A stretch of 64,000 nt of DNA from an uncultured Gemmatimonadales bacterium (GCA_963779755.1 CAVZZO010000001.1:1376001-1440000); one strand, 5' to 3'. Positions 882 to 62,870 are shown, counted from the stretch's first letter. Program-made: numbers and translations. Notes: a model not told the origin generated them from the letters alone.

Positions 882-936
882 AGGCGGCAAGACGGCAGGT
901 GGAGCGCTCACGTGCCGTCCTGCCGTCCTGCCGCCT
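882..936. repeat. Inverted 8-bp tandem repeat hairpin
   Basis: GGCGGCAA GACGGCAG ... TGCCGTCC TGCCGTCC TGCCGCCT around loop GAGCGCTC. Confidence 0.85.
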
Positions 937-939
937 ACC

Positions 940-1758
940 ATGACGACTGATCTGATTTCGGCCGCGGCTACGGTTGTGCGCGAACGGCTCGGCGCGCCGC
1001 TCCCGGCCACTGCCATCGTCCTCGGCTCCGGGCTGGGCGGGCTCACCCGGCGGATCCAGGATCCGGTGCGCCTTCCCTACCAAGAGATCCCGGGTTTCCC
1101 GCTGCCCACCGTCGAAGGACACGCCGGCGAGCTGGTCGCCGGGCTGCTGGGCGGAAGGCGCGTGCTGGCGCAGAGCGGCCGCTTTCATATGTATGAAGGT
1201 CACGATGCGGCCACCGCGGCGCTGCCGGTACGGGTGTTCGCCGAGTTGGGAGTGCGGACCCTGCTCCTCACCAACGCCGCGGGCGGCATTCGCCGGACCT
1301 TCCGCGCGGGCGCGCTCATGCTGCTGTCCGATCACCTGAACCTGACCTTTCGCAATCCGCTGATCGGCGGGGTCCTGGCGGGGGAAGAGCGATTCCCCGA
1401 TATGTCCGATCCCTACGATCCCGGGTTGCGCCGCCTGGCCCGCGAAGTGGCGGCGGAGCGGAAGATCCCGCTGGAAGAGGGGGTGTACGCCGGGCTGCTG
1501 GGGCCGAGCTACGAGACGCCGGCCGAGGTGCGGATGCTGGAGCGAATGGGCGCCGATGCGGTGGGAATGAGCACCGTGCTTGAAGTCATCGCCGCCCGGG
1601 CGCGAGGGATCCGCTGCCTGGGCGTCAGCATCGTCACCAACCCCGCCAGCGGCCTGGGCGCGCCGCTGTCGCACCAGGAAGTGATGGAAAGCGCCGGGAA
1701 GGCCGGGGCGCAGCTGGAGGAGCTGATCGAAGGAATCGTCGCCTCCTCGGCGGGCTGA
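940..1758 (+). CDS. punA: Purine-nucleoside phosphorylase (trimeric type)
   Basis: IVLGSGLG, GRFHMYEG, TNAAGG, GPSYETPAE, DAVGMST. Confidence 0.95.
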   Translation: MTTDLISAAATVVRERLGAPLPATAIVLGSGLGGLTRRIQDPVRLPYQEIPGFPLPTVEGHAGELVAGLLGGRRVLAQSGRFHMYEGHDAATAALPVRVFAELGVRTLLLTNAAGGIRRTFRAGALMLLSDHLNLTFRNPLIGGVLAGEERFPDMSDPYDPGLRRLAREVAAERKIPLEEGVYAGLLGPSYETPAEVRMLERMGADAVGMSTVLEVIAARARGIRCLGVSIVTNPASGLGAPLSHQEVMESAGKAGAQLEELIEGIVASSAG

Positions 1759-1766
1759 TGGAGGTA

Positions 1767-1913
1767 AACCGCAAAGACGCGAAGGGCGCGAAGGGACGCG
1801 AAGGCTGCTTCTACACTGAGAGGCGGTCTCTTGGCCTCTGCGATCCGCGCAGGGGTTGGGGGACGCGGTTGTACCGAGTTGCAGTTGTTCGCGCTCTTCG
1901 CGTCTTCGCGGTT
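1767..1913. repeat. MITE-like inverted repeat element with CGCGAAG units
   Basis: AACCGCAAAGACGCGAAGGGCGCGAA (1767-) vs TTCGCGCTCTTCGCGTCTTCGCGGTT (1888-1913), 24/26 complementary. Confidence 0.85.
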
Positions 1914-1918
1914 AGCAG

Positions 1919-2713
1919 TTAATCCGACGATGGCGCCGGGACTGAGTGATTGAGCGGCCCATGGCCCCGGCCCAGGCCGGGCGCGGATTCGATGGCGCGG
2001 TGGACGTAATCGAGCGCATCCTCCACCGCGCGCTCCAGGTCGCGGCCCAGGGCCAGCCCGGCGGTGACGGCCGCGGAGAGGGTGCAGCCGGTACCGTGCG
2101 TCGAGGTCGTGTCGATCTTCGCGTGCCGGAAGCGGCGGGTGGTGTTCGGCGTGACCAGGAGGTCGATTACCTCCGCGCCCGGCAGGTGGCCGCCGGTGAT
2201 GAGCGCGGCCCCGGCGCCCCGCTGAAGCAGTGCCCGGGCGGCGCGCTCCATGTCCGGCTCGCTCTCTACCGGGATGCCGGCCAGCAGCGCGGCCTCCGCC
2301 AGGTTGGGCGTCACCAGCCGGCAGAGCGGCAGCAGGTCGGCGCGGACCGCGTCTTCGCCCTCGGCGGTCAACAACCGGTCGCCTGAGGTGGCGACCATGA
2401 CCGGATCGAGCACGTAAGGGCCCCAGTCGCGCGAGCGCAGCGCCCCGGCCACCAGCCGCACCAGCGGTGCCGTGGCCAGCATGCCGGTCTTGACTGCCGC
2501 GGGCGGCAGATCCTCGGCCAGCGCCTCGAGCTGGGCCGCGACGATCGTCTCGGGGACCACATGCACTCCGTGCACGCCCCGGGTATTCTGCGCCGTAATT
2601 GCCACGATGGCGCTGGTGCCGAAGACGCCGAACTGGTGGAAGGTCTTGAGGTCGGCCTGGATGCCGGCCCCGCCGCCGGAATCCGAGCCGGCAATGGTCA
2701 GTGCGACACGCAT
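1919..2713 (-). CDS. thiD: Hydroxymethylpyrimidine/phosphomethylpyrimidine kinase
   Basis: [43 protein letters not shown]; start moved to ATG 2713. Confidence 0.95.
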
Positions 2714-2740
2714 GGGCCCGGTCTCCCGGCCGAAAGGGAC

Positions 2741-3508
2741 ATGAGCAGCTCCCTGCAGACGATCATTCGAGATCTCCGCCGCCGCCGCGGCCGCGAGCGG
2801 CGCGGGCTGGCGCTGGCCGAAGGCGTCCGGCTGGTGGAGGAGGCGCTGCGGGCGGGCGTCGCCTTTCGCGGCGCCGCCGTTGCGCCCGCGCTGGAAAGTA
2901 GCCCCCGCGGCCGGGAGCTTGCAGCGGCGCTGGAGCGGAGGAGCGTCCCGCTGGAGCGGATGGACGACCGCGCCCTCGCCGGCCTGGCCGACACCGAGCA
3001 TCCGCAGGGGATCGTCGCCGTCATCGAGCCGCCTCACCCCACGCTGAGCGAACTGTTTCCCGCGGCGGGCGAGGTCGTGCTGGTGCTGGACGCGGTGCAG
3101 GACCCGGGCAACGTCGGGACCATGCTTCGCACCGCGCTGGCGCTGGGCGTCGCGGGCGTCATCGCGCTCGACGGCACCGCGGAGCTGACCAACCCCAAGG
3201 TGCTGCGGGGCGCGATGGGCGCGCATTTCCACCGGCCCGCCGTGATGGCGCGGCAGGAAGAGTTCCTCGCGTGGTGTGCGGAGCGGAAGGCGGAGCTTTG
3301 GGTGGCGGACATGGACGGCGAGCCGGTGCAGGGAAGGCCCGCCGCGCCGCTGGCCCTGGTGGTGGGCAACGAAGGGGCCGGCGTGCGCGAGGCGCTGCGG
3401 GAGCGCGCGGCGCGGCGGGTGGGCATTCCCCTCGCTGCCGGGGCCGAATCGCTGAACGTGGCCGTGGCCGCGGGCATCCTCCTCTACGAGGTGATGCGTG
3501 AGCGCTGA
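2741..3508 (+). CDS. TrmH/SpoU family RNA methyltransferase
   Basis: [27 protein letters not shown]; start ATG 2741. Confidence 0.92.
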
Positions 3509-4272: not shown

Positions 4273-5484
4273 GTGAAACGAAGGAATACGCTGGGGCTGA
4301 TCTGTGCAGCGGGCATGGTGGCCGCCATGCTCCCCGGCTGCCGGGGCGAACCGCAGCGGGTCGCGCCCGGCCGCCTCCAGGTGCTGGTGGACAGCCTGCG
4401 CCCCCAGGTGGAGCGGGTGACCGGCCTCCAGTTCAAGGGTCCCATCCAGTCCGCCATGCAGACCAAGGACCAGGTCCGCTCCTACCTGCTGCGCCGGTTC
4501 GACGAGGAGATCCCGCCGGCGAAGCTCACAGGCATCGAGGACGCCTACCGGCTCTTCGGGCTCATCCCCGATACGCTCGACCTGCGCGGGCTGCTGCTCG
4601 ATCTCTACACCGAGCAGGTGGCGGGCTACTACGACCCCGAGAGCAACACGCTCTTCGGTGTCGAGGGCGCCGATCCCGCGCAGCTGAAGCTGGTCCTGGC
4701 GCACGAGCTGGTGCACGCGTTGCAGGATCAGTATACCAACCTCGATTCGCTGCTCTCGCTGAAGGGCGACGACGACCGTCAGTCGGCGGCCCAGGCCATT
4801 CTGGAGGGCCAGGCCAACCTGGCCTCGCTCCAGCTCATCGCTCCCGAGCGGGCCAACGATCCCGCCTTCTGGGACACCTTCCTCGACGCCCTGCGGCAGC
4901 AGCAGTCCACCATGCCGGTCTTTGCCCGCTCACCTCTGGTGGTGCGGGAGGACCTGCTCTTTCCCTACGTGGCCGGCGCGGAGTTCATGCGCTGGTGGGC
5001 CACCTCGCCGCTCAAGGATACCGTCCCCTACGGGCCCCGGATGCCGGTCTCGACCGAGCAGATCCTGCATCCCGAGCGGTATCTCAATGGCGATGAGCCG
5101 GACGGCTTGCGCTTCGCCGATACCGATTCGGCCGAGTATGACAATGTCCTGGGAGAGCTGGAGCTGCACGTGCTGGACGCGGTGCTCAAGGGCAGTGAGG
5201 ATGTCGTGACCCGCACCGTCCCCGGCTGGGGCGGCGACCGGTTCCGGGTCTATGCGACCCCCAATGGCCCCGCGCTGGTGTGGTATACCGTGTGGGACAG
5301 TCCGGTCTATGCCCAGCGCTTCGAGCTGGGCCTGGGAGCCCGGATGGCGATGCGCTCGCGGCAGGGCTATCGCACGGCGATGGATACGCTGACGGTGGAC
5401 AGCCTGCCCGCCGTACGCATCACCGTGGCGCCGGCCGGGTGGACGCGGTGGGGTCGGGAGCCCGGGGTGGAGCTCCGTCGGTAG
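4273..5484 (+). CDS. Putative zincin-like lipoprotein
   Basis: Lipobox-like LPGC, HELVHALQDQ (HExxH), downstream LEGQA. Confidence 0.7.
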   Translation: MKRRNTLGLICAAGMVAAMLPGCRGEPQRVAPGRLQVLVDSLRPQVERVTGLQFKGPIQSAMQTKDQVRSYLLRRFDEEIPPAKLTGIEDAYRLFGLIPDTLDLRGLLLDLYTEQVAGYYDPESNTLFGVEGADPAQLKLVLAHELVHALQDQYTNLDSLLSLKGDDDRQSAAQAILEGQANLASLQLIAPERANDPAFWDTFLDALRQQQSTMPVFARSPLVVREDLLFPYVAGAEFMRWWATSPLKDTVPYGPRMPVSTEQILHPERYLNGDEPDGLRFADTDSAEYDNVLGELELHVLDAVLKGSEDVVTRTVPGWGGDRFRVYATPNGPALVWYTVWDSPVYAQRFELGLGARMAMRSRQGYRTAMDTLTVDSLPAVRITVAPAGWTRWGREPGVELRR

Positions 5485-5496
5485 GACAGCTCCGGA

Positions 5497-5644
5497 ATTC
5501 ACCGCGAAGACGCCAAAGGCGCGAAGGTTGCGAAGTCATGTTGTGTGGGTCTATCCGTCGGGACCAGGCTGCGCCTGACACCCTGGGAGGGCCGCCAACA
5601 GAACACAGATTACTCTTCGCGCCCTTCGCGTCTTCGCGGTGAAT
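5497..5644. repeat. MITE-like inverted repeat element, 30-bp arms
   Basis: ATTCACCGCGAAGACGCCAAAGGCGCGAAG (5497-5526) vs CTTCGCGCCCTTCGCGTCTTCGCGGTGAAT (5615-5644), 28/30 complementary. Confidence 0.9.
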
Positions 5645-5647
5645 CAG

Positions 5648-7213
5648 TCATCGCCCCAACATGACGTTGATCCCGAACGCGATCGCGCCCACGATCGCTC
5701 CCAGCACGTAACCCAGGTTCACGATCAGGTCCAGCTCCTTCTGCGTCACGTTGCGGACGATCTCCTCCATCCGCTGCGTGCTGAACCCCAGCACCTTCTG
5801 CTCCACCATCTCCTGGACCTGGATCTGCCCCACCAGCATGGGGATCTGGCTCTGCACCCAGCCCCAGGCGGCCTCCACCAGATCCTGCCTGACCCGTGCC
5901 GAGCGCTCCTCGCCCAGCCAGCCGGCGGGGCGGCCCAGCGGGCGGTCGAGCAGGTGGTTCGCCACCGAGCGTACCGTCTCCTCCACCCACTGCTTCCCCC
6001 GCGGCCCCGCGGCGGCATCGGCAATGAGCCGGGCCAGCGTCTCGGCCGGGATGGCGTCCAGCACGTCTCCCCAGGTCCGTTGCTCGGCGGCGTGCAAGGC
6101 GCGGTCGACCGTCTGGCCGATCACCCGCCGGGTACCGGCATCGCGCGCCAGCTTTACCGCCCAGTCGCCCAGGGTCTTCTCCAGATCGGCCCGGCGTTGC
6201 TCGCCCAGCCGGCGGAATCGCTCGGCCAGGGGAATGCGCAGGAAGCTCACCACCGCATCGTTCACCGCGCGGGCAACCTGGGCCTCGATGGCCGGACTCT
6301 TCAGCTCGAAGCCCAGCCGGTCCAGCCCCCGCCTCTCGAACCCGTCCACCAGCCGCGCGATGGTGCGGTCGGTCACCACCATCTTGGCAAGGATGCGCTC
6401 GTGCAGCAGCAGATCGCGCACCGTATGGTCGAACGCGTCGCGCAGGGCGCCCTCGACCTGCCGCCGGGTATCGGGGTTCTGCAGCACCGAGCCGAGCCGC
6501 TCCACCGCGACGGGGAGATAATCGGTGATCCCCTGCTCGACGGCCCCCACCAGCCCGGGCGGCAGCCGCTCCAGCAGGGGCCGGTCGTCGCGTGCCAGGC
6601 TGTCCATCTGCTGCGTGATGAACCCGCGTACCGCGTTCTCCAGTGCCTCGCCCTCGGCCATCTGCCCCACCCACTCGTCCACCTTGCGGGCCAGTGACTC
6701 CCGGCGGCCGGCCGTCAGCACCTCGCCCAGCGGCCGGTCGCCCAGCTCGGCGCGGAGCTTCTCCTGCCAGACCTCCACCCGGGCGACGAAAGCAGGGCCG
6801 GCCGTGTACTCCGCCAGCCGCCGGGCCACTACATCGCTCAGTTCGGGCAGCGCCTGCTCGACGGTCTCCAGCAGGGACGGGCTCAGGCCCTGGCGGAGGG
6901 GGCCGCGATCGCGCTCCAGCAGGTCGTTCAGGAAACCGCCGATGGCCCGGGCGAAGGTCTCATAGACGCTCGGCGTGCTGAGCCGCTGGGCCAGGTCCTC
7001 CGGCGTCAGCAGCCGCTCGCCCACCGCCTTGCCCACGCTCTTCGCCAGACGGGCCTTGTTCTTGGGGATGGCGCCATGAAACCGGAACGGCCCGAACCCG
7101 CGCCGGTCGTGGGGATGAAACAGCATCCAGACGGCGACGGCGTTGGTGATGCCGCCGGACAAGGCACCGACCAGGACGGTGACGATGCCGGTGACGAGGA
7201 GCTGGTGGTTCAT
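5648..7213 (-). CDS. DUF445 family membrane protein
   Basis: N-term GGITNAVAVWMLFHP..GAIPKNK, C-term ELDLIVNLGYVLG; start ATG 7213. Confidence 0.85.
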   Translation of the reverse strand: MNHQLLVTGIVTVLVGALSGGITNAVAVWMLFHPHDRRGFGPFRFHGAIPKNKARLAKSVGKAVGERLLTPEDLAQRLSTPSVYETFARAIGGFLNDLLERDRGPLRQGLSPSLLETVEQALPELSDVVARRLAEYTAGPAFVARVEVWQEKLRAELGDRPLGEVLTAGRRESLARKVDEWVGQMAEGEALENAVRGFITQQMDSLARDDRPLLERLPPGLVGAVEQGITDYLPVAVERLGSVLQNPDTRRQVEGALRDAFDHTVRDLLLHERILAKMVVTDRTIARLVDGFERRGLDRLGFELKSPAIEAQVARAVNDAVVSFLRIPLAERFRRLGEQRRADLEKTLGDWAVKLARDAGTRRVIGQTVDRALHAAEQRTWGDVLDAIPAETLARLIADAAAGPRGKQWVEETVRSVANHLLDRPLGRPAGWLGEERSARVRQDLVEAAWGWVQSQIPMLVGQIQVQEMVEQKVLGFSTQRMEEIVRNVTQKELDLIVNLGYVLGAIVGAIAFGINVMLGR

Positions 7214-7228
7214 GGGTTGGGGAGTATA

Positions 7229-7260
7229 GGCGGCAGGGCGGCAGGGCGGCAGGGCGGCAG
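7229..7260. repeat. (GGCGGCAG)x4, left arm
   Basis: Four perfect 8-bp units. Confidence 0.95.
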
Positions 7261-7350
7261 GTGGGCCGACCCGGACGCCTCCGCGGGCTTCTGAAACGCC
7301 CAGCGCTCGAATGATGACAGTCGAGAGGCAGGCGCTGAATACCGTGGAGC

Positions 7351-7776
7351 ATGCCAAACGCCACCTCCAAGCCCTCGAGGCTCAGTTCCTTTCAGCGCCT
7401 CACGGCCTGGCGCGCCTGCCACGAGCTGACTCTCGCGATATATAGGCAATCCGACTCATGGCCCGAGACCGAGCGCTATGGCCTGATCTCGCAGGTCCGG
7501 CGGGCGGCCGTGTCGTGCTGCTGCAACATTGCGGAGGGCAGCGCAAAGCGTGGGAGTGCCGAGTTCAGGCGTTTTCTCGACATGGCCCTCGGTTCACTGG
7601 CCGAGATCGAGGCTCTGTTTCTCATCGCGAGAGATCTTGGGATTCTCCAGAAGACCACCTGGGGAGAACTTGAGGCTTTCCGCGACCACGCTGGCAAATT
7701 GGTTTGGGGTCTGTACCTGGCTGTCGGGAGGCGGACAACGCCGCGGCCTGCCAAGCCCAGAACGGAGAAGGGATAA
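7351..7776 (+). CDS. Four-helix bundle protein (23S rRNA IVP / TIGR02436-like)
   Basis: L.AW...H.L...IY...WP..ERYGL.SQVRRAA.S...NIAEG...EF.RFL..A.GSL.E signature. Confidence 0.9.
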   Translation: MPNATSKPSRLSSFQRLTAWRACHELTLAIYRQSDSWPETERYGLISQVRRAAVSCCCNIAEGSAKRGSAEFRRFLDMALGSLAEIEALFLIARDLGILQKTTWGELEAFRDHAGKLVWGLYLAVGRRTTPRPAKPRTEKG

Positions 7777-7815
7777 GGGAACGGTCTGGCACGCCGGGCT
7801 CTTGTGCAGCATTCT

Positions 7816-7895
7816 CCGCCTTGCCGCCTTGCCGCCTTGCCGCCTTGCCGCCTTGCCGCCTTGCCGCCTTGCCGCCTTGCCGCCCTGCCGCCTTG
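7816..7895. repeat. (CCGCCTTG)x10, right arm, inverted relative to 7229-7260
   Basis: Ten 8-bp units, one variant CCGCCCTG. Confidence 0.95.
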
Positions 7896-7922
7896 CTCCT
7901 AACCCCATGTCCGCGCTATAAT
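7893..7922 (+). promoter_or_regulatory. Putative sigma70 promoter of ffh operon
   Basis: TTGCTC-N18-TATAAT, 9 nt before ATG 7932. Confidence 0.6.
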
Positions 7923-7931
7923 TCCCGGCTT

Positions 7932-9320
7932 ATGTTCGAGGAGCTTTCGTCCAAACTGACCTCCACCCTGGCCCGCTTCACGGGCCGGGGTGTTCTGACC
8001 GAAGAGGCAGTCCGGGAGGGCCTGCGGGAGATCCGCCGGATCCTGCTCGAGGCGGACGTCAGCTTCGACCTCACGAGGGAATTCCTCGAACATGTGCAGG
8101 CCAAAGCGGTTGGGGCGGACGTGCTCAAGAGCGTCCGGCCCGGCCAGCAGCTGGTCAAGGTCGTCTACGACGAGCTGGTGGCCATGCTGGGCGAGACGCG
8201 CGCCCCGCTGGCCGTCGCCTCGGTGCCGCCCACCCTCATCCTGGTGGTGGGGCTCCAGGGCTCGGGCAAGACGACCACCGTGGCCAAGCTGGCCCGGCGG
8301 CTCAAGCAGGAGCAGAAGGCGCCCTTCGTGGTGGCGGCCGACGTCTACCGTCCCGCCGCCGAAGAGCAGCTGAAGCAGCTGGCGAAGCAGGTGGAGGTCG
8401 GTGCCTTCGGCATGACGGATTGGGTGGGGCAGGGTGGACCTGCCGTCCTGCCGTCTTCCCGTCCTGCGGCGGGGTCGGTGGATGTGGTGGGGCTCGTCCG
8501 CTCGGGCATGGAGGCCGCGGGCAAGGCCCGGGCCCGGACGGTCATCGTGGATACCGCCGGCCGGCTGCAGATAGACGAAGAGATGATGCACGAGCTGCAG
8601 GGCCTGAAGGGCGCCCTGCGGCCGCAGGAGATCCTCCTCGTGGCCGACGGCATGACCGGCCAGGATGCGGTCCGCATCGCCCGCGGGTTCCACGAGGCGC
8701 TGGGCATCACCGGGGTGGTGCTCACCAAGATGGACGGCGACAGCCGCGGCGGCGCGGCGCTTTCCATCTATGGCGTCACCCACGCGCCCATCAAGTTCGT
8801 GGGCACCGGCGAGCGGGTGGATGCGCTGGAGCCGTTCCACCCCGAGCGGATGGCGGGGCGCATTCTCCAGCAGGGGGATATCCTCTCGCTGGTGGAGAAG
8901 GCCCAGGCCACGGTGGACGAGGCCGAGGCCGAGAAGCTGGCGAAGAAGGCGGGCAGCAAGAAGGGGCTCGATCTGGGCGACTTCCTCACCGCCATGAAGC
9001 AGCTCCAGAAGATGGGGCCGCTCAAGAACGTGCTGGGGATGCTGCCGGGGGTGAACCCGGCGATGCTCAAGTCGGCCAACGTGGACGAAAAGCGGATCCG
9101 CCACATCGAGGCGATCGTGCTCTCCATGACGCCCAAGGAACGGGCCGACCCCGACGTCCTGAACGGATCGCGCCGGCTGCGCATCGCCAAAGGCTCGGGC
9201 CGGACGGTGCAGGAGGTAAATCAGCTGCTGAATCAGTTCAAGCAGATGAAAAAGTTCATGAAGGTGGCCGGGCGTCCCGGCATGAAGCTCCCGCTGGGGG
9301 GGATGTTCCCCGGGATGTAA
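7932..9320 (+). CDS. ffh: Signal recognition particle protein
   Basis: LLEADV, GLQGSGKTTT, DTAGRL, TKMDGD.RGG, M-domain SMTPKER..SRRLRIAKGSG. Confidence 0.97.
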   Translation: MFEELSSKLTSTLARFTGRGVLTEEAVREGLREIRRILLEADVSFDLTREFLEHVQAKAVGADVLKSVRPGQQLVKVVYDELVAMLGETRAPLAVASVPPTLILVVGLQGSGKTTTVAKLARRLKQEQKAPFVVAADVYRPAAEEQLKQLAKQVEVGAFGMTDWVGQGGPAVLPSSRPAAGSVDVVGLVRSGMEAAGKARARTVIVDTAGRLQIDEEMMHELQGLKGALRPQEILLVADGMTGQDAVRIARGFHEALGITGVVLTKMDGDSRGGAALSIYGVTHAPIKFVGTGERVDALEPFHPERMAGRILQQGDILSLVEKAQATVDEAEAEKLAKKAGSKKGLDLGDFLTAMKQLQKMGPLKNVLGMLPGVNPAMLKSANVDEKRIRHIEAIVLSMTPKERADPDVLNGSRRLRIAKGSGRTVQEVNQLLNQFKQMKKFMKVAGRPGMKLPLGGMFPGM

Positions 9321-11291: not shown

Positions 11292-11960
11292 GTGCGGCGC
11301 CAGCGCCCCTCCCTCGCGCGCGAAGCCGAGGTCTGGGCGTCGGAACGTCTGCTGGTCGGTGTGGATGAAGTCGGCCGCGGCCCCCTGGCTGGTCCAGTGG
11401 TGGCCGCGGCCGTCGTCTTTCCTCCCCACGTCACCCGCCTGTATGGCCTGCGCGACAGCAAAGTCCTGACCGCCCGCCAGCGCGAGAAGCTGGCCGGCCG
11501 CATTCGCCAGCGGGCCCTGGCGCTGGCCGTGGGCGCCGCGTCCTGCCGCGAGATCGACCGCCTCAATATCCGGGTCGCCAGCGCGCTGGCCATGCGCCGC
11601 GCGGTCCGGCGGGTGCTCGTCCTTCTGCGCCGGGCCGAGCCGCCGGCCGCGCTGGCCGATCCCGCCGCCCGCTACCAGGTCCTGATCGACGGCCTGCCGC
11701 TGCCCGAGTTGGGCCTGCCGCACGACGCCCTGGTGGACGGCGACGCGCTCTGCGACTCCATCGCCGCCGCCGCCGTCATCGCCAAGACGGTGCGCGACCA
11801 TCTCATGGCGCGCCTGGCGCAGCGCTACCCCGGCTACGGCTGGGAGTCCAACATGGGCTACGCCACCGCCGATCACTGCGCGGCGCTGGGCCGGCGCGGC
11901 CCCACCCGGCACCACCGCCTCAGCTTCGAGCCATTGAGCCAGCTCCGGCTGCCGCTGTAG
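11292..11960 (+). CDS. rnhB: Ribonuclease HII
   Basis: GVDEVGRGPLAGPV, LRDSK, IAAAAVIAKTVRD. Confidence 0.95.
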   Translation: MRRQRPSLAREAEVWASERLLVGVDEVGRGPLAGPVVAAAVVFPPHVTRLYGLRDSKVLTARQREKLAGRIRQRALALAVGAASCREIDRLNIRVASALAMRRAVRRVLVLLRRAEPPAALADPAARYQVLIDGLPLPELGLPHDALVDGDALCDSIAAAAVIAKTVRDHLMARLAQRYPGYGWESNMGYATADHCAALGRRGPTRHHRLSFEPLSQLRLPL

Positions 11961-12093
11961 AAGAACCGCGACACGGAGGCACGGAGGCACGGAGCAAGCG
12001 AGCTACTACGGCGGCGGCGCCTACGGGGTTATGTATTTAGAACTTATGTTCCTCCGTGTCTCCGTGTCTCCGTGTCTCCGTGTCACAGTTCTT
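11961..12093. repeat. Inverted 8-bp tandem repeat element (CACGGAGG / CTCCGTGT)
   Basis: AAGAACCGCGACACGGAGGCACGGAGGCACGGAG ... (CTCCGTGT)x4 CACAGTTCTT. Confidence 0.9.
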
Positions 12094-12107
12094 CCAGGAG
12101 ATCAGCT

Positions 12108-14558: not shown

Positions 14559-14646
14559 GGCGGTAAGGCGGGAAGACGGGAAGGTGGGAAGAGGGAAAGG
14601 GGAATGGGGAACGGGCCGTTTCCCTGTTCCCCATTCCCGTTTCCCT
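14554..14646. repeat. 8-bp array followed by 7-bp-unit inverted hairpin
   Basis: GGTAAGGC GGTAAGGC GGGAAGAC GGGAAGGT; then AGGGAAAGGGGAATGGGGAACGGG / CCCTGTTCCCCATTCCCGTTTCCCT. Confidence 0.8.
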
Positions 14647-14664
14647 TTAGTTTTCCCGCTCTCC

Positions 14665-14737
<73 letters not shown>

Positions 14738-14743
14738 TTAGAG

Positions 14744-14823
14744 GGCGGCAAGACGGCAAGACGGCAAGACGGCAAGACGGCAAGACGGCAAGGCGGCAGG
14801 ACGGCAAGACGGCAGGACGGCAG
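14744..14823. repeat. (GACGGCAA)x10 with variants, no nearby partner arm
   Basis: Ten 8-bp units G[AG]CGGCA[AG] ending in GGCAGGTGG. Confidence 0.95.
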
Positions 14824-15002
14824 GTGGACGAAACCAGAACGGTCCTCCGGGTGTGGGGGCCGCCTTTCCATTCTCCTACTGCCCTCCAACCCCTGTAGGT
14901 GTAAACCCTTACTTGCCGCCGCTGTCCTGGATGCTACAGTAGATGTGTACGTTCAGCAGAACCCTGCTGCGACAGACCACCGCATAGCCCGTCTCGCTGC
15001 AC

Positions 15003-15860
15003 ATGACTGACACGCGAACCCGCCGCCGCGGCAACCGCGCAAACCGGGATATTCCATCGCCTGTCGAGGCCGGAGATGGAGCGCAGCTGGCGCTCGACAA
15101 CGCGCACCGTCACTTCGAGGCAGCCGGCATCCTGCGCGATGCTGAGCTCTACGCTTCCGCCCAGAGCCATCTGGTGCTGGCCACAGAGGAACTGGCCAAG
15201 GCAACCGCCCTGGCCACGGTCGCGGCCGGATTCCGCTGGCCGCCCGGCCACCTGGTGGAAGTCCTGTTCCATCGCGGTCCCCGGAACGCCCTGACCTTCG
15301 GCGATGTGCTGCTGGTCAGCATGCTGGGCGTGGCGCGGCGGGCGGCAGAGGTGGTGCAGGAGCGGAATGGCGTCCAGCGCTTTGTCCCTGAGCTGTGGAA
15401 CGAGTTCAAGGCCGAATTCGAGCGCGAGAGCCGCGAGCTGACGGAGGGGTCGGGGGCTTCCGATCTCATGCAGAAGCTGCTGGGCTGGGTTCGGGAGGCC
15501 TCGAGCCGCAGAGACCAGGGCTTCTATGTTGACTTCACGGCGCGATCAGGCTGGTGGGACCCGGGCAGCATCACCGCCGGGCAGCTGGCCCGGGACTACG
15601 AAATCGTAAAGGGATTGCTCGCGTTCCGCGGCCGGCAGATTACCGAAATGCTCGACCTGCAGCCCCAGCTCGATGAAACCGCCGCTACCCGGTTCACTGC
15701 CCTCCTCCAGGAGGCCAACTCTCTGGAGTTCGAGGAGATGCTGGCGCGCTTCATCTCCGTCGCCGAAGCCGATCCGGCTGCCATCTTCCTGCTCGCGCGC
15801 CACAGCTCGGACGCCGGTGACTGCGAAGGCGCGCTGCCCGAATCCCGGCAGGAGGCCTAG
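15003..15860 (+). CDS. AbiV family (HEPN-like) abortive infection protein, putative
   Basis: LDNA.RH..AA.IL....Y..A....VLA.EELAK and RRDQGFYVD resemble the AbiV pattern. Confidence 0.7.
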   Translation: MTDTRTRRRGNRANRDIPSPVEAGDGAQLALDNAHRHFEAAGILRDAELYASAQSHLVLATEELAKATALATVAAGFRWPPGHLVEVLFHRGPRNALTFGDVLLVSMLGVARRAAEVVQERNGVQRFVPELWNEFKAEFERESRELTEGSGASDLMQKLLGWVREASSRRDQGFYVDFTARSGWWDPGSITAGQLARDYEIVKGLLAFRGRQITEMLDLQPQLDETAATRFTALLQEANSLEFEEMLARFISVAEADPAAIFLLARHSSDAGDCEGALPESRQEA

Positions 15861-15866
15861 GCCGGC

Positions 15867-16247
15867 CTACGGTTCCCGGAACCCCACCACGCTCCACCTC
15901 AGCCGTCCCGCCGCGGGGTCATGGGCGAACATCACCCAGCCCCGCTTGCTTCCGTGGCCGGTCAGATAGCTCAGGTGCACCAGGCCATGCTCGGCCTCTC
16001 CCTCACCCTCCAGGGTCACCCGCACCCGCAAATCCTCCGCCGTCACGTCGCCTGCGTTCCTGACGGTGACCGGTAACGCGTAGCGCCCCGCGCGGGGCTC
16101 AGGCTGGCCCAATTCCACCTGAATCCGCGGCGGTATAGCGTCCGACCGTGCCATTTCGTATACCAGCACCCCGGCGCAAGCCAGCACCAGCGCTCCGCCC
16201 GCAACGAGCACCAGCCATTCGAGCCAGTTCTTGCCTTGATCAGCCAT
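15867..16247 (-). CDS. TIGR02588-like membrane-anchored protein
   Basis: KNWLEWLV TM, VTVRNAGDVTAEDL, F..DP; coupled to TIGR02587-like gene. Confidence 0.7.
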   Translation of the reverse strand: MADQGKNWLEWLVLVAGGALVLACAGVLVYEMARSDAIPPRIQVELGQPEPRAGRYALPVTVRNAGDVTAEDLRVRVTLEGEGEAEHGLVHLSYLTGHGSKRGWVMFAHDPAAGRLRWSVVGFREP

Positions 16248-17083: not shown

Positions 17084-17267
17084 GCCGCTGCTCCTCCCCT
17101 GGGTTCCTCTGCCTCCGGTATTCTCGCGGTGCAACGATACCGGCGCGTTGATGCCTGTCACAGAGCGGCGCCTTGCAGAGCACCACCCTGCCCGGTGCCT
17201 GGCTCAGCCGCCCACTCCCCGCCCGCTCCCCAATCGAGTAGCCTTGGAGGTCCCAACCAGGCCTCTC

Positions 17268-58257: not shown

Positions 58258-59981
58258 GTTTCCGTGCGCGCCTGTTTGCCGGGTTCCTGATCGCGGTCAT
58301 GATCCCGCTGGGGCTGTTCGCGGTGGGGGTGCGGCAGACCATGTCGCGCCGGCTGGTAGAGCAATACCGGGCGGGCACCGCCGCGCTGGCGGCCTCGGCC
58401 GCGGGCGAGCTGCAGCGCCAGGGCCAGGAGATTGCCGGCCGCCTCTCCGCCATCGCGGGGCGGTTGAGCGAGGACAACCGTTTCCGTCTCGGGTTGCTGG
58501 ATTCGACCGCGCCCGACCGGCGCTACCTGCTGGATTACGCCGGCGCGGCCATGCGCGCCACCGGTCTCCACCTGCTGCAGATCCAGGATGCCGACGGCCG
58601 CATTCTGAGCTCGGGGCAGTTCCGGAACGATTACGACCGGCTCGATCCCGGTCTGCCGCGGTCTCTGGCTCGCAGCTCCGGACCGGCGGTGGTCGAGGCC
58701 CGGACGGCGGAAGCGCCGTTCCTGGCGCTGGCCCGGGTGGATTCGGCGAGGGTGGCGGGCCGGAGCCTCTATCTGGTCGGCGGGATCCAACTCGACCGCG
58801 ATATCCTTGCCGGGCTCACCCGCGATTCGGTCCTGACGGTCTCGCTGATCGCGCCGGGCCATGTCATCTCGCCCGATCCCCGGCTGCAGGCCGCGCTGGA
58901 TTCGTCCGCCAGGCCGGGGACTATCCCCGGCGACCGGATCGCCAGCCGCTTCGCGCTGCCGTACCTGTCTCAGCCTGCGCCGGCCAGCGTGTCCGACTCC
59001 GCTCTGCTGCTGGTGACCCAATCTCTCGGGCCGGTCGCAGCGCTGCGGCGGCAGACCGATCTCTGGTTTGCGGCGGCCGTGGGGTTGGCGGCCCTGCTGG
59101 GGCTGCTGGTGGCGGGATGGCTCTCCGGCCGGGTGAGCGCCCCCCTGCGCGAGCTGGCGGCGCGGACCGCGAGGCTGGATCTGGAACAGCTGGATCAGGA
59201 CTTCACGCTCGACCGTGCCGATGAAATCGGCGCGCTCTCCCGGGTGCTGGGCGACATGGCCCAGCGGCTGCGGGGCGACATGATCCGGCTGCGCGAGGTA
59301 GAGCGCCGGGCGACGGTGGGAGACCTGGCGCGCCAGGTGAATCACGATATCAAGAACGGCCTCATCCCCATCCGGAACGTGCTGCGCCACCTGGAACAGG
59401 TTGCCCGGGAGCATCCCGAGACCCTGGCCGCGGTGCTGCAGGAGCGGCAGGAGACGCTGCATGCGTCGGTCGCCTACCTCGAGACCCTGGCCCGCAACTA
59501 CGCCCGCCTGACGCCGGCGGCCAGCGGGGTGGCCTGCGACCTCAACCCGCTGGCGGCCCAGATTGCGCGCGACGCGGCGCGGCCCGGCATACAATTCGAT
59601 CTCCGGCTGTCGGAGCGGCCCGCGGTGGTGGCCGCGGATAGTGTGGTCGCGCGGCGGGTGGCGGAAAATCTGATCGGGAATGCGGTGGACAGTCTGGACG
59701 GCCGAGGCGGTACGGTGGGAGTGTTCACCGAGCATGTCCACGGAGCGGACGGCGGCCCGCTGGTGCGCCTGACGGTCGCCGACTCGGGCCGGGGCATGAC
59801 GCGGGAAGAGCTCAACCGCGCCTTCGACGACTTTTATACCACGAAAGAGACCGGCACGGGGCTGGGCCTCAGCATCGTGCGCCGGTTGGTGCTCGATCTG
59901 CACGGTGCGCTGCGCGTGGAGACGGAGCCGGGGCAGGGAAGCCGGTTCATTGTGGAGCTGCCATCGGCGACGACCCTGTGA
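58254..59981 (+). CDS. HAMP-domain sensor histidine kinase (NtrY-like)
   Basis: 2 TM, DEIGAL, H-box NHDIKNGL, NL..NAVD, DSGRGM, TTK..GTGLGL. Confidence 0.92.
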   Translation: MSFRARLFAGFLIAVMIPLGLFAVGVRQTMSRRLVEQYRAGTAALAASAAGELQRQGQEIAGRLSAIAGRLSEDNRFRLGLLDSTAPDRRYLLDYAGAAMRATGLHLLQIQDADGRILSSGQFRNDYDRLDPGLPRSLARSSGPAVVEARTAEAPFLALARVDSARVAGRSLYLVGGIQLDRDILAGLTRDSVLTVSLIAPGHVISPDPRLQAALDSSARPGTIPGDRIASRFALPYLSQPAPASVSDSALLLVTQSLGPVAALRRQTDLWFAAAVGLAALLGLLVAGWLSGRVSAPLRELAARTARLDLEQLDQDFTLDRADEIGALSRVLGDMAQRLRGDMIRLREVERRATVGDLARQVNHDIKNGLIPIRNVLRHLEQVAREHPETLAAVLQERQETLHASVAYLETLARNYARLTPAASGVACDLNPLAAQIARDAARPGIQFDLRLSERPAVVAADSVVARRVAENLIGNAVDSLDGRGGTVGVFTEHVHGADGGPLVRLTVADSGRGMTREELNRAFDDFYTTKETGTGLGLSIVRRLVLDLHGALRVETEPGQGSRFIVELPSATTL

Positions 59982-59999
59982 GTAGGCGGAGGGGGCAGT

Positions 60000-60032
60000 C
60001 CTTCTCCCGTCCTTTTCCCGTCCTTTTCCCGT
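60000..60032. repeat. (CCTT[TC]TCCCGT)x3
   Basis: 11-bp pyrimidine-rich units between kinase and regulator. Confidence 0.75.
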
Positions 60033-60063
60033 CTTTTCTTTCGCCTTTCTTCCGGTACCTGCC

Positions 60064-61482
60064 GTGACCCTGATTCTCATCGTTGACGATGTTCCCGCGA
60101 TGGCGGAGCAGTATGCCTACGACCTGCGGCGGATCGGCGGCTATGACGTTCTGACCGCGCCGGGGGGCGAGGCGGCCCTGGACCTGCTCACGCTGGAGCC
60201 GGTGGATGCCATGGTGCTGGACCTGGAAATGCCGGGGCTGGACGGGTTCGGGGTGCTGCGCGCCATGCGGCAGCGCGCCATCGGAACGCCGGTCGTGGTC
60301 TATACCGGCACCGGGAACTTCGACCGTTGCGTCCAGGCGGTGAAGCTCGGCGCCTACGGGTTCATTGACAAGGCGGAGCCGGTCGAACGAGTGGTGCAGG
60401 AGATCGAAAGCGCGATCGACCGGAAGCGGCTGGAAGACGAAGTAGGCATGCTGCGGCGGCGCATGGTGGGCGAGGGCGCGCTGGTCGGCGACAGCCCCGC
60501 CATGCAGCGGCTGCGCGAGACCCTGGCGAGGCTGGCCCCGATCCCCAGCCCCGTGCTGGTCCTGGGAGAAAGCGGTACAGGCAAGGAGCTGGCCGCGCAC
60601 GAGCTGCACCGGTTGGGGTCCACTCCATCGGCACCCTTCATCGCGGTCAACTGTGCGGCGCTGCCGGAGCAACTGGTGGAGAGCGAGCTCTTCGGCCACG
60701 AGCGGGGGGCCTTCACCGGCGCCGCGGCCCTGCGGAAGGGTGCCTTCGAGGCGGCGGGAAAGGGCACGCTCTTCCTGGACGAGATCGGCGAGCTGCCGCT
60801 CGCGGCCCAGGCCAAGCTGCTGCGGGTGCTGGAGGAGCGCCAGGTGACGCGGCTGGGCGGCACGCGGACGGTTCCGGTCCAGGCCCGCGTGGTGGCCGCC
60901 ACCAACCGCGAGCTGGGCCAGGAAGTGGCCGAAGGCCGCTTCAGGAAGGACCTCCTTTACCGGCTCAACGTGCACACGGTGACGCTGCCGCCGCTCGACG
61001 AGCGCCGGTCGGATATTCCGCGGCTGGCGGAGCGTTTCCTGGAGAGTATCTGCGGCCGGTTCGGCATGCGGGCAAAGCGGCTATCGCCCGAGGCGCTGGC
61101 CGCGCTGATGGAATACGGCTGGCGGCAGAACAACGTGCGCGAGCTGCGCAACGTGATCGAGCGCATGATCCTCGCGGCCGACGGCGATGTCATCGGTGCC
61201 GATTGCGTTCCCGACGACATCGGGGGCGGCGCGCCCCCTCCCCGCGGTGAGGCTCGCACGTACCAGGAGCGCCGGGCCGAAGCCGAACGCCGGATCCTGC
61301 TGGAGGCGCTGGAGGAGAACGAGTGGCAGATCACGCGGACGGCCAGGGAACTGGGGCTGGCGGATCACTCCAGCCTGCTGAAGATCATGCGGAGATTGGG
61401 GGTGGAGAAAAGGAGTGAGGAGGTGAGGAGTGGGGAGAGAGGAGTGAGGAACGAGGAACGAGGAACGAGGAACGAGGACTGA
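60064..61482 (+). CDS. Sigma54-dependent response regulator (NtrC family)
   Basis: REC (VDD, DLEMP), GESGTGKE, GAFTGA, FLDEIG, NVREL, Fis-type HTH. Confidence 0.95.
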   Translation: MTLILIVDDVPAMAEQYAYDLRRIGGYDVLTAPGGEAALDLLTLEPVDAMVLDLEMPGLDGFGVLRAMRQRAIGTPVVVYTGTGNFDRCVQAVKLGAYGFIDKAEPVERVVQEIESAIDRKRLEDEVGMLRRRMVGEGALVGDSPAMQRLRETLARLAPIPSPVLVLGESGTGKELAAHELHRLGSTPSAPFIAVNCAALPEQLVESELFGHERGAFTGAAALRKGAFEAAGKGTLFLDEIGELPLAAQAKLLRVLEERQVTRLGGTRTVPVQARVVAATNRELGQEVAEGRFRKDLLYRLNVHTVTLPPLDERRSDIPRLAERFLESICGRFGMRAKRLSPEALAALMEYGWRQNNVRELRNVIERMILAADGDVIGADCVPDDIGGGAPPPRGEARTYQERRAEAERRILLEALEENEWQITRTARELGLADHSSLLKIMRRLGVEKRSEEVRSGERGVRNEERGTRNED

Positions 61483-61502
61483 GGAATGAGGACTGAGGAA
61501 TG
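61411..61502. repeat. About 13 heptamers AGGA[AGC][CT]G overlapping the regulator C-terminus
   Basis: AGGAGTG, AGGAACG x4, AGGACTG, AGGAATG. Confidence 0.9.
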
Positions 61503-61505
61503 CGT

Positions 61506-61649
61506 GATCGTGTACGGACGGACACGATCGGTGGTTCGGCTCCGTGTCCGGCCGCACACAAGAGTCCTTGGTCGGGCCGCGACGCTTTCTGGAACTGACG
61601 TTGGCTTAAGGACTTAGCGAATGGGGGCGAGGATGGCCCCGCCCCTGCC
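61506..61649 (+). promoter_or_regulatory. Putative sigma54 promoter with two upstream activator sites
   Basis: GTGT-N8-ACAC at 61510 and 61544; TGGCCCCGCCCCTGC (GG-N10-GC) at 61634. Confidence 0.6.
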
Positions 61650-61713
61650 TTTCTCCGGGGTGACCGCAGGTCGTCACTCACGGCGCCTCGGCGCCCATGC
61701 AAGGAGAAGGGCC

Positions 61714-62808
61714 ATGCCCGCAACCCGCGCAATCAACTGCAAGCAGGACCGTCGTGTCTGGATTCCCATGGGATTTCTGGTGGGCTTCCTGGGGTTGGCG
61801 AGCCTCACGCTGGCCGCCTCCGGCTGCAGCGACAACGACGGCACCGCCGCGGTGGTGAAGACCACCCCGGCGGTGAACACCAGCACAACCGCGCCCACGG
61901 TCATTCCGGCGAGCACGGAGTCCGGCACCACGACCGAATCAAAGGTGCTGCCCGCCAACGTCAGCTTCGACCAGGCGCGGGAGGTGTACCGGACCGGCGA
62001 TTACCGGGCTGCGGCGGATCTGTTCGGAGTGTACGTGCGGAACAAGCCGTCCAATCCCTGGGGCCATTTCATGCTGGGCATGTCGGAGTTCAAGACCGGG
62101 GATATCAGGGGGGCGGAGGAATCGTTCAAACAGGCGCTGGCACTGGACTCCACCCATCTGAAGAGCCGGTTCAACCTGAGCCGGGTCTATCTGCAGACCG
62201 ACCGGCCGCGTGAAGCGCTGGAGCAGATCGAGCAGGCACTGGCGGTGGATTCCACCGCAGGCGAGGCGTTCCGGCTGCAGGGTATCGCCTACGGCGACCT
62301 GGGGCAGGACGACGAAGCGATCGATGCCTACCAGCGCGCCCTGGTCCGGGACGACCACGATGCCTGGTCGATGAACAACCTGGGTCTCCTCTATATCCGC
62401 GAAGGCCGTTTCGAGGATGCGCTGCCGCCGCTGGCGCGGGCGGTCGAGATCCGGCCCAACGCCCCGGTGTTCCAGAACAATCTGGGGATCGCGCTGGAGC
62501 GGAGCGGGCACTATCGGGCGGCGGAGACGGCCTATGGCGCGGCCCTGGCCGCGGACAGCGCCTATCCCAGGGCGGGCGTGAACCTGGAGCGGGTCCGTGG
62601 CCTGGAGGAGGATGCGCTGACCGGTCCGGTGGACCTGAGCGGGCTGGCCGAGTCGTTCATGGCCCAGCTCAAGTGGTGGCGGGACAGCTCGGTCCGGCCG
62701 GGCGACAGCGTCATCGATGTGGTGCCGGATACGACCGTGGCGGACACGGTAACGTCCGTGCCGGTGCCGGGGGACTCGACCGCCGCGGACAGCGTGACGG
62801 GCCGGTAA
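61714..62808 (+). CDS. TPR-repeat exported protein, probable lipoprotein
   Basis: Hydrophobic stretch plus ASGC, Thr-rich linker, about 6 TPRs; AGGAG RBS. Confidence 0.85.
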   Translation: MPATRAINCKQDRRVWIPMGFLVGFLGLASLTLAASGCSDNDGTAAVVKTTPAVNTSTTAPTVIPASTESGTTTESKVLPANVSFDQAREVYRTGDYRAAADLFGVYVRNKPSNPWGHFMLGMSEFKTGDIRGAEESFKQALALDSTHLKSRFNLSRVYLQTDRPREALEQIEQALAVDSTAGEAFRLQGIAYGDLGQDDEAIDAYQRALVRDDHDAWSMNNLGLLYIREGRFEDALPPLARAVEIRPNAPVFQNNLGIALERSGHYRAAETAYGAALAADSAYPRAGVNLERVRGLEEDALTGPVDLSGLAESFMAQLKWWRDSSVRPGDSVIDVVPDTTVADTVTSVPVPGDSTAADSVTGR

Positions 62809-62813
62809 GCCGG

Positions 62814-62870
62814 GAGGCGTGAGGCGTGAGGCGTGAGGCGTGAGGTACCCCTTACGCCTCACGTCTTACG
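62814..62870. repeat. Inverted heptamer repeat hairpin
   Basis: (GAGGCGT)x4 GAGG tacc CCTTACG CCTCACG TCTTACG. Confidence 0.88.

Follow-up and report, generated by a model that had tools for sequence, protein, structure and literature searches.

The closest parallels to the elements described here are the short tandemly repeated repetitive (STRR) hairpins of cyanobacteria and the repetitive extragenic palindromic (REP) elements. REP sequences, bacterial interspersed mosaic elements (BIME) and REP doublets forming hairpins (REPIN) are extragenic hairpins that are tolerated in operons and occur as inverted pairs around a variable spacer, the copies of a REPIN sharing their arms. The 7-bp STRR of cyanobacteria form intergenic hairpins for which a contribution to transcript stability, translational coupling or termination is proposed in the accessible text of their description (PMC2670836). 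Here we analyse a stretch of 64,000 nucleotides from an uncultured Gemmatimonadales bacterium (GCA_963779755.1, CAVZZO010000001.1:1376001-1440000; this whole stretch is hereafter the window), in which arrays of short tandem repeats, found between positions 882 and 62870, face each other as the arms of hairpins, the purine-rich arm coming first and the pyrimidine-rich arm second. These purine-first hairpins are a real, statistically supported feature of the texture of this genome. They are most likely unusual transcript-end stem-loops and not a new recognition system, and are best filed as STRR-like in form, REP-like in place and terminator-like in polarity.

As far as the accessible description of the cyanobacterial repeats allows the comparison, the likeness to STRR lies in the tandem units of about 7 nt placed in intergenic gaps, in their predicted capacity to form hairpins and in their location near gene 3' ends or between co-transcribed genes; one perfect array of the window (TCAGCCA x12.9) has the very look of an STRR. 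The elements differ from STRR in belonging to another phylum, in units that are mostly of 8 nt, in their very high GC content and in the lack of any sequence relation. For STRR, the open-access text that was accessible mentions neither a constant order with the purine arm first nor arms free of T or A. The paired elements of the window are the following, the strand being given where one was assigned.

882 to 936, unstranded: element 1, purine arm at 882-899 and pyrimidine arm at 913/919-936, with GGCARGAC units and a loop of 13-19 nt (882/914 pair of 18 bp with 1 mismatch), between a nupC-like stop codon (871-873) and a pnp-like start (940).

1767 to 1913, unstranded: element 2, CGCGAAG-type arms at 1767-1792 and 1888-1913 (26 nt, 92% complementary) around a 95-nt loop, flanked by two convergent genes, one pnp-like with its stop at 1756-1758 and one thiD-like with its stop at 1919-1921.

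5497 to 5644, unstranded: element 3, arms at 5497-5526 and 5615-5644 (30 nt, 93% complementary) around an 88-nt loop, between convergent genes with stops at 5482-5484 and 5648-5650.

7225 to 7896, plus strand: element 4, purine arm at 7228-7262 (GGCAGGGC x4) and pyrimidine array at 7816-7896 (CCGCCTTG x10), the 7229/7816 pair being of 32-39 nt and 87-94% complementary, between the divergent DUF445 gene and ffh.

11960 to 12094, unstranded: element 5, arms at 11960-11994 (CACGGAGG x3) and 12049-12094 (CTCCGTGT x4), loop of 51-65 nt (11961/12052 pair of 35 nt, 89% complementary), starting in the rnhB stop codon and ending 14 nt before the start of the peptidase M1 gene.

14557 to 14658, unstranded: element 6, a purine array whose AAGGCGGG x4.4 part opens within the peptidase M1 stop codon and gives way to GGGAAWG units, with a hairpin at 14592-14646 (14592/14622 pair of 21-24 nt, 92-95% complementary; loop of 7-13 nt) that has a T-rich tail.

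62814 to 62870, unstranded: element 8, GAGGCGT x4.6 paired with 62847-62870 (62814/62850 pair of 21-24 nt, 83-86% complementary, three G:T positions; loop of 5-11 nt), starting 6 nt past the stop codon (62806-62808) of a TPR gene.

20531 to 20568, unstranded: an extra purine-first hairpin with a homopurine arm at 20531-20546 and a homopyrimidine arm at 20553-20568, preceded by A-rich and followed by T-rich sequence, in a convergent gap with stops at 20495-20497 and 20585-20587.

59982 to 60053, plus strand: an extra element with a short purine run directly past a histidine-kinase stop codon (59979-59981), after which comes a long T/C array (GTCCTTTTCCC x3.8), run and array being paired by RNAfold.

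Eight pairs had been listed in a first-pass annotation of the window, and seven of them are real inverted repeats according to Tandem Repeats Finder (TRF) and two inverted-repeat searches, with confirmed stems of 18-39 nt at 83-95% complementarity; the eighth, 18701/18985, is weak. The pairs at 20531-20568 and 59982-60053 were added to that list by RNAfold of the remaining intergenic gaps. The use of different tandem units among the pairs was confirmed by TRF (7-9 nt, 2.6-12.9 copies, at least five unit types), which also returned unequal copy numbers for the two arms, as in 4.1 copies at 7229 vs 10.1 at 7816. The spacers proved as unrelated and as variable as first described, ranging from 4-13 to about 550-600 nt, and the loops of 1767 and 5497 do not align with each other. 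Pairing is well above chance: among inverted repeats with loops of up to 120 nt, the window holds six with a score of at least 14 and four with a score of at least 16, against means of 0.3 and 0 in twenty dinucleotide-preserving shuffles of the same sequence. Regarding the weak pair, the AGGACGGC runs form a duplex of only -23 to -34 kcal/mol with the pyrimidine array at 18962-19018, which pairs better elsewhere, namely with the 14550-14620 arrays (-85 kcal/mol) and with the 7229 purine arm (-73 kcal/mol). Since GGCARGRC-type and GGGAAGGC-type arrays hybridise with each other, the assignment of partners is ambiguous. Five arrays are unpaired locally (14746-14822, 18881-18970, 33293-33338, 61411-61499 and the 18701 octamers), the paired architecture being common in the window and not universal.

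The polarity of the elements was followed beyond the window in two comparison sets, 230 kb of syntenic Gemmatimonadales loci and 245 kb of outgroup loci. Relatives were picked through ffh and not through the repeats, which gave at least 31 ffh loci, at least 16 of them from Gemmatimonadota; the query had been translated from ffh in the wrong frame (start 7934, not 7932), and the resulting set is usable but surely incomplete, so that closer relatives or the genome of the window itself may be absent from it. Among the public loci recovered, the nearest are titled Gemmatimonadales or Gemmatimonadota, with Ffh identities of 62-77% in the 15 related loci that have an unbroken ffh match (L016 has fragmented ffh matches only), and the gene order common to the relatives is nupC-pnp-thiD-spoU-pilD-DUF6782-DUF445-ffh-rpsP-rimM-trmD-rplS-rnhB. 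Inverted repeats were counted at a score of at least 12 and loops of up to 120 nt by a search that treats both orders alike. The window has 14 of them (6 purine-first, 1 pyrimidine-first and 7 neutral), the Gemmatimonadales loci 31 (10, 1 and 20, respectively) and the outgroup loci 24 (1, 1 and 22). An equal frequency of both polarities, which the first-pass annotation had set against its own proposal, is not what the window and its relatives contain, since purine-first repeats outnumber the others by 16 to 2 (binomial p=0.0013), and their excess over the outgroups is also significant (Fisher p=0.0034). At this score about 3 inverted repeats per 64 kb, evenly split between orders, are expected by chance, and among the stems scoring at least 14 in the window and relatives none is pyrimidine-first. 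No pyrimidine-first tandem pair was found in the window, as had been claimed; its sole pyrimidine-first inverted repeat is a chance-level one of 13 bp (3338-3419) within a coding region.

A purine arm followed by a pyrimidine arm reads in the same order on both strands, and therefore neither gene direction nor replication direction can explain the polarity. Arm order is thus intrinsic to the element, and reversing it gives another kind of object. The pooled 5' arms contain 27% A, 18% C, 51% G and 4% T, and the pooled 3' arms 3% A, 43% C, 17% G and 36% T, where the window average is 15% for A and 16% for T; the asymmetry is, at bottom, really one of A vs T. Within related loci 5' arms with more A than T prevail by 16 to 5, and in the outgroups by 12 to 8. 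A hairpin of another composition was seen in an outgroup locus titled delta proteobacterium (L011:4576-4738), where (GTGTTTG)x4.9 and (CACCAAA)x4.7 stand inverted around a loop of 99 nt, the G/T-rich arm first and the end adjoining the stop codon of a gene. Gemmatimonadota are thus not alone in having hairpins made of inverted tandem heptamers.

The second regularity concerns stop codons. The purine arm had been described as often starting at or just after a stop codon, which holds for 882, 1767, 5497, 11961, 14557, 18701 and 62814, and fails for 7229, located between divergent genes. A purine tract starts in a stop codon or at most 12 nt past it in 8 of the 9 paired elements and in three unpaired arrays; the stop-adjacent tracts listed are those of elements 1, 2, 3, 5, 6 and 8 and those at 18701, 33293 and 59982, and the exception among the paired elements is element 4. 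In the two clear convergent gaps (1759-1918 and 5485-5647) a distance of 3-12 nt separates each arm from a stop codon. Averaged over the called genes of the window, the purine fraction is 0.59 over the 10 nt next to the stop and declines to 0.44 at a distance of 60-70 nt, and in the outgroups (189 genes) it is flat. These profiles are approximate because of the crude gene calls on which they are built: the caller, based on G+C content at third codon positions, recovered 37 genes where the window has about 59, and its output includes at least one false call and a pair merged into one. Taken together, the elements are better described as sharing a constraint, a T-free purine tract at the stop codon plus an A-free pyrimidine 3' arm.

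As to how the arms arise, their units are uniform within an arm and different between arms. The purine arm of element 5 consists of CACGGAGG x3 and its other arm, read as the reverse complement, of CACGGAGA x4, and in element 4 GGCAGGGC x4 faces the complement of GGCAAGGC x9 plus one GGCAGGGC. This uniformity within arms, together with copy numbers that are unequal in most pairs, therefore points to a palindrome that was there beforehand and whose arms underwent replication slippage independently of each other; the pattern is, judged from the units themselves, not the one that a process writing both arms together would leave. The frequent occurrence of arrays in inverted pairs could be understood because two complementary arms are equally prone to slippage. 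The initial dismissal of slippage is not supported by these data, since homogenisation within arms, unequal copies and some five unpaired arrays all point to it. The same facts would also suit another account, in which palindromes containing a small direct repeat expand by slippage, template switching keeps their arms complementary, and the products are neutral and functionless. Besides the unequal copies and uniform units, with TCAGCCA x12.9 at 100% and CCGCCTTG x10 at 97% suggesting recent expansion, this account can draw on the unpaired arrays, on the fast sequence turnover between related genomes and on one array that has spilled into a coding region to yield a low-complexity protein tail. 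Nevertheless, it does not predict the prevalence of one polarity (16 purine-first vs 2 in the window and relatives), the near absence of T in 5' arms and of A in 3' arms, or the start of purine tracts at stop codons, and we regard it as an unlikely explanation of the whole.

Growth in place leaves one observation aside: elements 2 and 3 carry the same 26-nt arm, with 3 substitutions, around unrelated loops. Slippage does not explain this shared arm, which requires copying between loci, by transposition or conversion. In this elements 2 and 3 resemble the copies of a REPIN, and with the REP group the elements at large have in common their extragenic location, their hairpin-forming capacity and their tolerance in operons; they differ from it in their mostly private units and in arms that are tandem arrays. 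A REP word is a conserved palindrome of 20-40 nt present many times in a genome, whereas in the 64 kb an arm in common was found only for elements 2 and 3. A second comparison is provided by the Foldback transposons of Drosophila, which have inverted termini of short tandem subrepeats and are eukaryotic, kilobase-scale and transposase-dependent; inverted termini of subrepeats, a variable arm length, a variable centre and occasional cargo are common to both. Miniature inverted-repeat transposable elements (MITE) likewise have inverted termini; the elements differ from them in that no target-site duplication was found at elements 2 and 3 or at the rimM/trmD inserts of the relatives, and in that their interiors do not align.

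These inserts illustrate the turnover of the elements among related genomes. The rimM/trmD gap measures 5-43 nt in 11 of 15 sequences, the window included, and is occupied in the remaining L002, L003, L005 and L008 by four different hairpin elements: a purine-first tandem hairpin in L002, a purine array plus a hairpin of a second family in L003, and hairpins of this second family in L005 and L008. The inserts start 0-16 nt past the stop codon and end 3-14 nt before the start codon, thus leaving both codons together at the base of the stem. The convergent DUF6782/DUF445 gap, in turn, contains purine-first inverted repeats of unrelated sequence in L008 (35 bp, perfect and not tandem) and L015 (12 bp), a hairpin placed by RNAfold in L023, and only an unpaired (CCCCTCT)x7.6 array in L004, whose purine-rich strand is the sense strand of the neighbouring DUF445 gene. 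None of the arm sequences of the window recurs in the 230 kb of related loci, save for one loose match in L003, and arrays are about 3 times denser in the window (16 per 64 kb) than in the relatives (18 per 230 kb). The second family consists of hairpins with near-identical arms of 21-27 nt, starting with GTCATCC/GTCATTGC, in unrelated intergenic gaps of three related genomes (L008:1548-1614, L008:11581-11650, L005:6654-6748, L003:7433-7518 and L005:7440-7560), and has filled the rimM/trmD junction independently in L003, L005 and L008. It has no match in Rfam, and a search of the open-access literature with its arm motif gave unrelated primer matches only.

One may ask whether the elements are non-autonomous mobile hairpins, similar to REPIN, MITE or Foldback and moved by an enzyme encoded elsewhere, with the four-helix-bundle gene located within element 4 as cargo or as what is left of an autonomous copy. 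The arm shared by elements 2 and 3, the recurrence of GGCARGRC-type units at 882, 7229, 14746 and 18701, the presence/absence polymorphism at rimM/trmD with four different inserts among 15 sequences and the near-identical arms of the second family (L008 1548 and 11581; L005 6654) would all fit such an origin, as would the many homologues of the four-helix gene on contigs shorter than 3 kb, which is how repeat-flanked genes that break assemblies would appear, and the mobility proposed, in the accessible part of the source, for intervening sequences that bear this open reading frame (ORF; PMC4990558). Against it stand the missing target-site duplications at elements 2 and 3 and at the rimM/trmD inserts, the unrelated interiors and mostly private units, the lack of any transposase, REP-associated tyrosine transposase (RAYT) or recombinase gene in the 64 kb according to Pfam, the homogenisation within arms, which points to growth in place, and the virtual absence of the window arms from the related loci. 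Mobility of this kind is thus, to our judgement, rather improbable as a general explanation.

The first-pass annotation went further and proposed a shared generating or recognition mechanism in place of slippage. Its descriptive part, a common architecture with fixed polarity, is borne out and extends to the relatives; the mechanism is left unsupported. Such a dedicated system would comprise either an array-binding protein or an array-writing enzyme, with interchangeable units set in one architecture and bracketing a cargo. The uniform architecture and polarity across at least five unit types are what it would produce; one pair does bracket a gene, and pairing (-85 kcal/mol) would be possible between the arrays at 14557-14615 and 18962-19018, which are separated by 4.3 kb containing a tRNA-Lys and an AbiV-type gene. 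On the other hand, the repeat units are not enriched as singletons, their counts outside arrays in the window being near the expectation from composition, which also led us to reject them as dispersed recognition words of the Chi-like or uptake-like type. None of the 127 window ORFs scanned is a recombinase, a transposase, a RAYT (Y1 transposase) or any other candidate enzyme by Pfam, cargo is present in only 1 of the 9 paired elements, cross-hybridisation is promiscuous, rendering the 4.3-kb pairing non-specific, and recognition of a specific sequence is hard to reconcile with units that can replace one another. Nothing in the window positively supports a dedicated system that generates or recognises the arrays, which appears to us very unlikely.

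The order of the arms recalls the arrangement of bidirectional intrinsic terminators. According to the accessible part of a study, an A-tract upstream of the stem marks bidirectional terminators, U-tracts are rare in the GC-rich Streptomyces, and only 4-6.6% of their mapped 3' ends met canonical criteria (PMC12207403). Within the limits of that source, the elements resemble bidirectional terminators in being strand-symmetric, with purines (A) on the 5' side and pyrimidines (U) on the 3' side, and in lying past stop codons, convergent gaps included. They differ from them in their stems of 18-37 bp and loops of up to 95 nt (one of about 600 nt), where canonical stems are short and loops have 3-8 nt, and in that the polarity resides within the stem, the arms are tandem repeats and a T-run after the stem is mostly missing. 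We infer that the elements are transcribed stem-loops at gene ends, terminator-like or protecting 3' ends, in a high-GC genome that rarely uses the hairpin-plus-U-tract signal, a reading for and against which the evidence seems to us about evenly balanced. In line with it, canonical terminator-like sites show no enrichment in 1-20 kb (6 found vs 6.5 expected), and canonical terminators were discarded as an account of the elements, among which only element 6 fits their definition. All stems are GC-rich; loops of 13 nt or less occur only in elements 6 and 8 and in the 20531 hairpin, the remaining ones having 13-95 nt and in one case about 600 nt.

Each element would originate as a palindrome directly past a stop codon, with a purine-rich 5' half (G, A, some C and almost no T) and a pyrimidine-rich 3' half (C, T, some G and almost no A), as if the A-tract/hairpin/U-tract polarity of a bidirectional intrinsic terminator had been stretched over the whole stem. 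An RNA tract of U and C without A forms a weak hybrid with its DNA template. The transcript of either strand would end in a U/C-rich arm, weakly held by such a hybrid and at once sequestered by the purine arm transcribed earlier; were the arms reversed, the first part to be exposed would be single-stranded and rich in C, and the transcript end would be a strong purine-RNA hybrid, which may be the reason for the polarity. The 7-9-nt tandem units could then be generated in one arm independently of the other, through ordinary slippage during replication, to which both are prone since they carry the same motif in complementary form, and the lengthening of the stem would be tolerated or favoured. 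A closed hairpin would keep the stop codon and the next start codon adjacent at the base of the stem, which would therefore explain its tolerance inside operons, and the same stems might protect 3' ends from exonucleases or serve as RNase III substrates, in keeping with proposals made for REP and STRR elements (PMC2670836).

Several observations weigh against this transcript-end reading. Most elements lack a T-run after the stem, T-rich tails being seen, by eye only, at 20569 and 60000. Divergent genes, between which a terminator is not needed, flank element 4 and also a hairpin without cargo at the corresponding place of L005, and the elements inside operons (nupC/pnp; rimM/trmD of L002) would be harmful if they terminated efficiently. 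Several unpaired arrays cannot make a local hairpin at all. The mismatches between arms give 13 G:U pairs on the strand of the upstream gene (plus) vs 7 on the other, and the differences in folding energy between plus and minus strands are within the spread of random 125-nt segments (SD, standard deviation, 9.5 kcal/mol). The post-stop purine gradient is weak in the related loci (0.52 to 0.47, 148 genes), and, as said, the arm shared by elements 2 and 3 calls for more than growth in place. It is tempting to speculate that Gemmatimonadales, and this genome foremost, possess a distinct class of strand-symmetric terminators devoid of U-tracts, in which release would proceed through a weak pyrimidine-RNA:purine-DNA hybrid of the 3' arm, slippage would tune stem length and read-through within short evolutionary times, and the stems would double as RNase III-type cassettes able to carry small genes, the four-helix-bundle ORF among them; this stronger proposal we consider improbable.

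The only pair bearing cargo is element 4. ORF 7351-7776 matches PF05635 (5.8e-28, 97.7 bits, cutoff 33.8) and TIGR02436 (1.4e-25, 89.6 bits, cutoff 24), by which profile matches the predicted product belongs to the 23S rRNA intervening-sequence/four-helix-bundle family. The claim of cargo genes is thereby upheld for one pair; GxxExxY and nuclease cargo, also mentioned at first, were not seen in the window. The minimum-free-energy fold of 7215-7931 predicts a 37-bp stem around the ORF, 7225-7262 pairing with 7858-7895 with 3-4 G:U, so that the purine arm meets the far end of the pyrimidine array. In Coxiella, as the accessible part of the report describes it, a 28-bp terminal stem within the 23S rRNA has such an ORF in its loop and is cut by RNase III, and a present or past mobility of intervening sequences with this ORF is proposed (PMC4990558). 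The likeness to the intervening sequences of Coxiella and Leptospira, a PF05635/TIGR02436 ORF in a long terminal stem, is accompanied by differences, in that element 4 lies between the DUF445 gene and ffh and that its predicted stem is made of unequal octamer arrays; as modelled, it resembles an intervening sequence in form, located outside the rRNA genes. The four-helix family is large, with 3636 homologues at E≤1e-5 among 3683 candidates; the named ones are titled Gemmatimonadales, and many lie on very short contigs (<3 kb), as would fit repeat-flanked genes. A hotspot for hairpin-bracketed cargo upstream of ffh was rejected, since nine relatives hold transporters, Lon and kinases there and no four-helix gene. 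At the downstream border of element 4 a perfect TATAAT (7916-7921) stands 10 nt before the ffh start codon (7932), and is itself preceded, at 17 nt, by a TTGCTC where the pyrimidine array ends (7893-7934 region), which suggests a leaderless or near-leaderless ffh transcript, the last repeat unit possibly forming the -35 region.

Besides the paired elements, the window contains the following arrays.

14746 to 14822, plus strand: an unpaired purine array, GGCAAGAC x9.6, directly 3' of tRNA-Lys (14665-14737).

18701 to 19018, unstranded: a complex region of several arrays, in which AGGACGGC octamers start in a stop codon.

33293 to 33338, plus strand: unpaired purine arrays, GAGTGGGCA x3.2 and GACGGG x3.2, starting in the stop codon of ORF 31639-33294, a putative gene without family match.

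61411 to 61559, plus strand: an unpaired purine array, AGGAGTG/AGGAACG x12.6 (61411-61499), and a separate 17-bp hairpin at 61510-61559.

The array at 61411 encodes the last ~24 residues of a sigma-54 activator (ending in KRSEEVRSGERGVRNEERGTRNED) and continues past its stop codon (61480-61482); its expansion has therefore given this sigma-54 response regulator a charged, low-complexity tail. Within the complex region, 18701-18837 is a 64-bp tandem repeat (x2.2, 90% matches), each copy of which begins with two AGGACGGC octamers and has a small hairpin of its own inside; 18881-18970 is the perfect TCAGCCA x12.9 (100% matches), without purine skew and without partner, upstream of a class IV aminotransferase gene, and looks like a very recent expansion; and 18962-19018 is the pyrimidine array already referred to. 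The purine arrays at 14557-14615, after the peptidase M1 gene, are complementary to the latter (-85 kcal/mol, 75% ungapped identity), and the 4.3 kb bracketed by 14557-19018 comprise tRNA-Lys, an AbiV/HEPN-type gene adjoining the tRNA-Lys array, DUF2391, an EamA transporter and an ORF of no known family. The synteny with the relatives ends after the peptidase gene. This stretch could be an island next to a tRNA, though the bracketing arrays cross-pair promiscuously. PADLOC gave no match to defence systems for 6 small ORFs of the window. A class A beta-lactamase family gene (PF13354, 1.7e-57) occupies 20585-21484 on the minus strand, the 20531-20568 hairpin following its stop codon. A run of CCTGCCGT x3.6 inside the ffh coding sequence (8439-8467), the complement of a GGCAGGAC-type unit, is probably coincidental or a small in-frame slippage.

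The genomic setting is ordinary. With 69% G+C over the whole window, the Pfam scan of its ORFs drew a usual chromosomal gene map: a nucleoside transporter, a phosphorylase, thiD, a SpoU methylase, a prepilin peptidase and the DUF445 gene, further along ffh-rpsP-rimM-trmD-rplS-rnhB followed by peptidase M1 and tRNA-Lys, and then polysaccharide synthesis genes, the trp operon and two-component genes. At gathering score Rfam returned only two tRNAs, and no rRNA, for the whole window. Known RNA families were discarded for the elements, as permissive Rfam scans of 1-20 kb and of a hairpin from a relative gave sub-threshold microRNA-precursor matches only. An ARAGORN call of tRNA-Ala(CGC) at 39164-39237, inside a glycosyltransferase gene (38048-39337), has no Rfam support at gathering score and is probably a false positive. 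Arrays of clustered regularly interspaced short palindromic repeats (CRISPR) were also rejected, since the units have 7-9 nt and run head to tail without spacers, where CRISPR repeats have 24-48 nt and unique spacers; the Rfam CRISPR-DR models gave one sub-threshold match elsewhere in the window (24.4 bits vs a gathering score of 39).

The open-access literature yielded nothing on inverted tandem-repeat hairpins or on purine-first polarity in Gemmatimonadota or other bacteria, and we know of no mapping of transcript ends in Gemmatimonadota. The arrays change quickly, can add low-complexity tails to proteins and can break assemblies, and in GC-rich metagenome bins they create spurious ORFs. If they were only slippage debris, they would be a curiosity of genome texture. 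Very GC-rich bacteria rarely have U-tracts and how their transcripts end is poorly understood, a question for which a strict purine-first rule, with T-free and A-free arms past stop codons, offers a concrete hypothesis. The value of the finding lies in this clean polarity rule for a GC-rich phylum.

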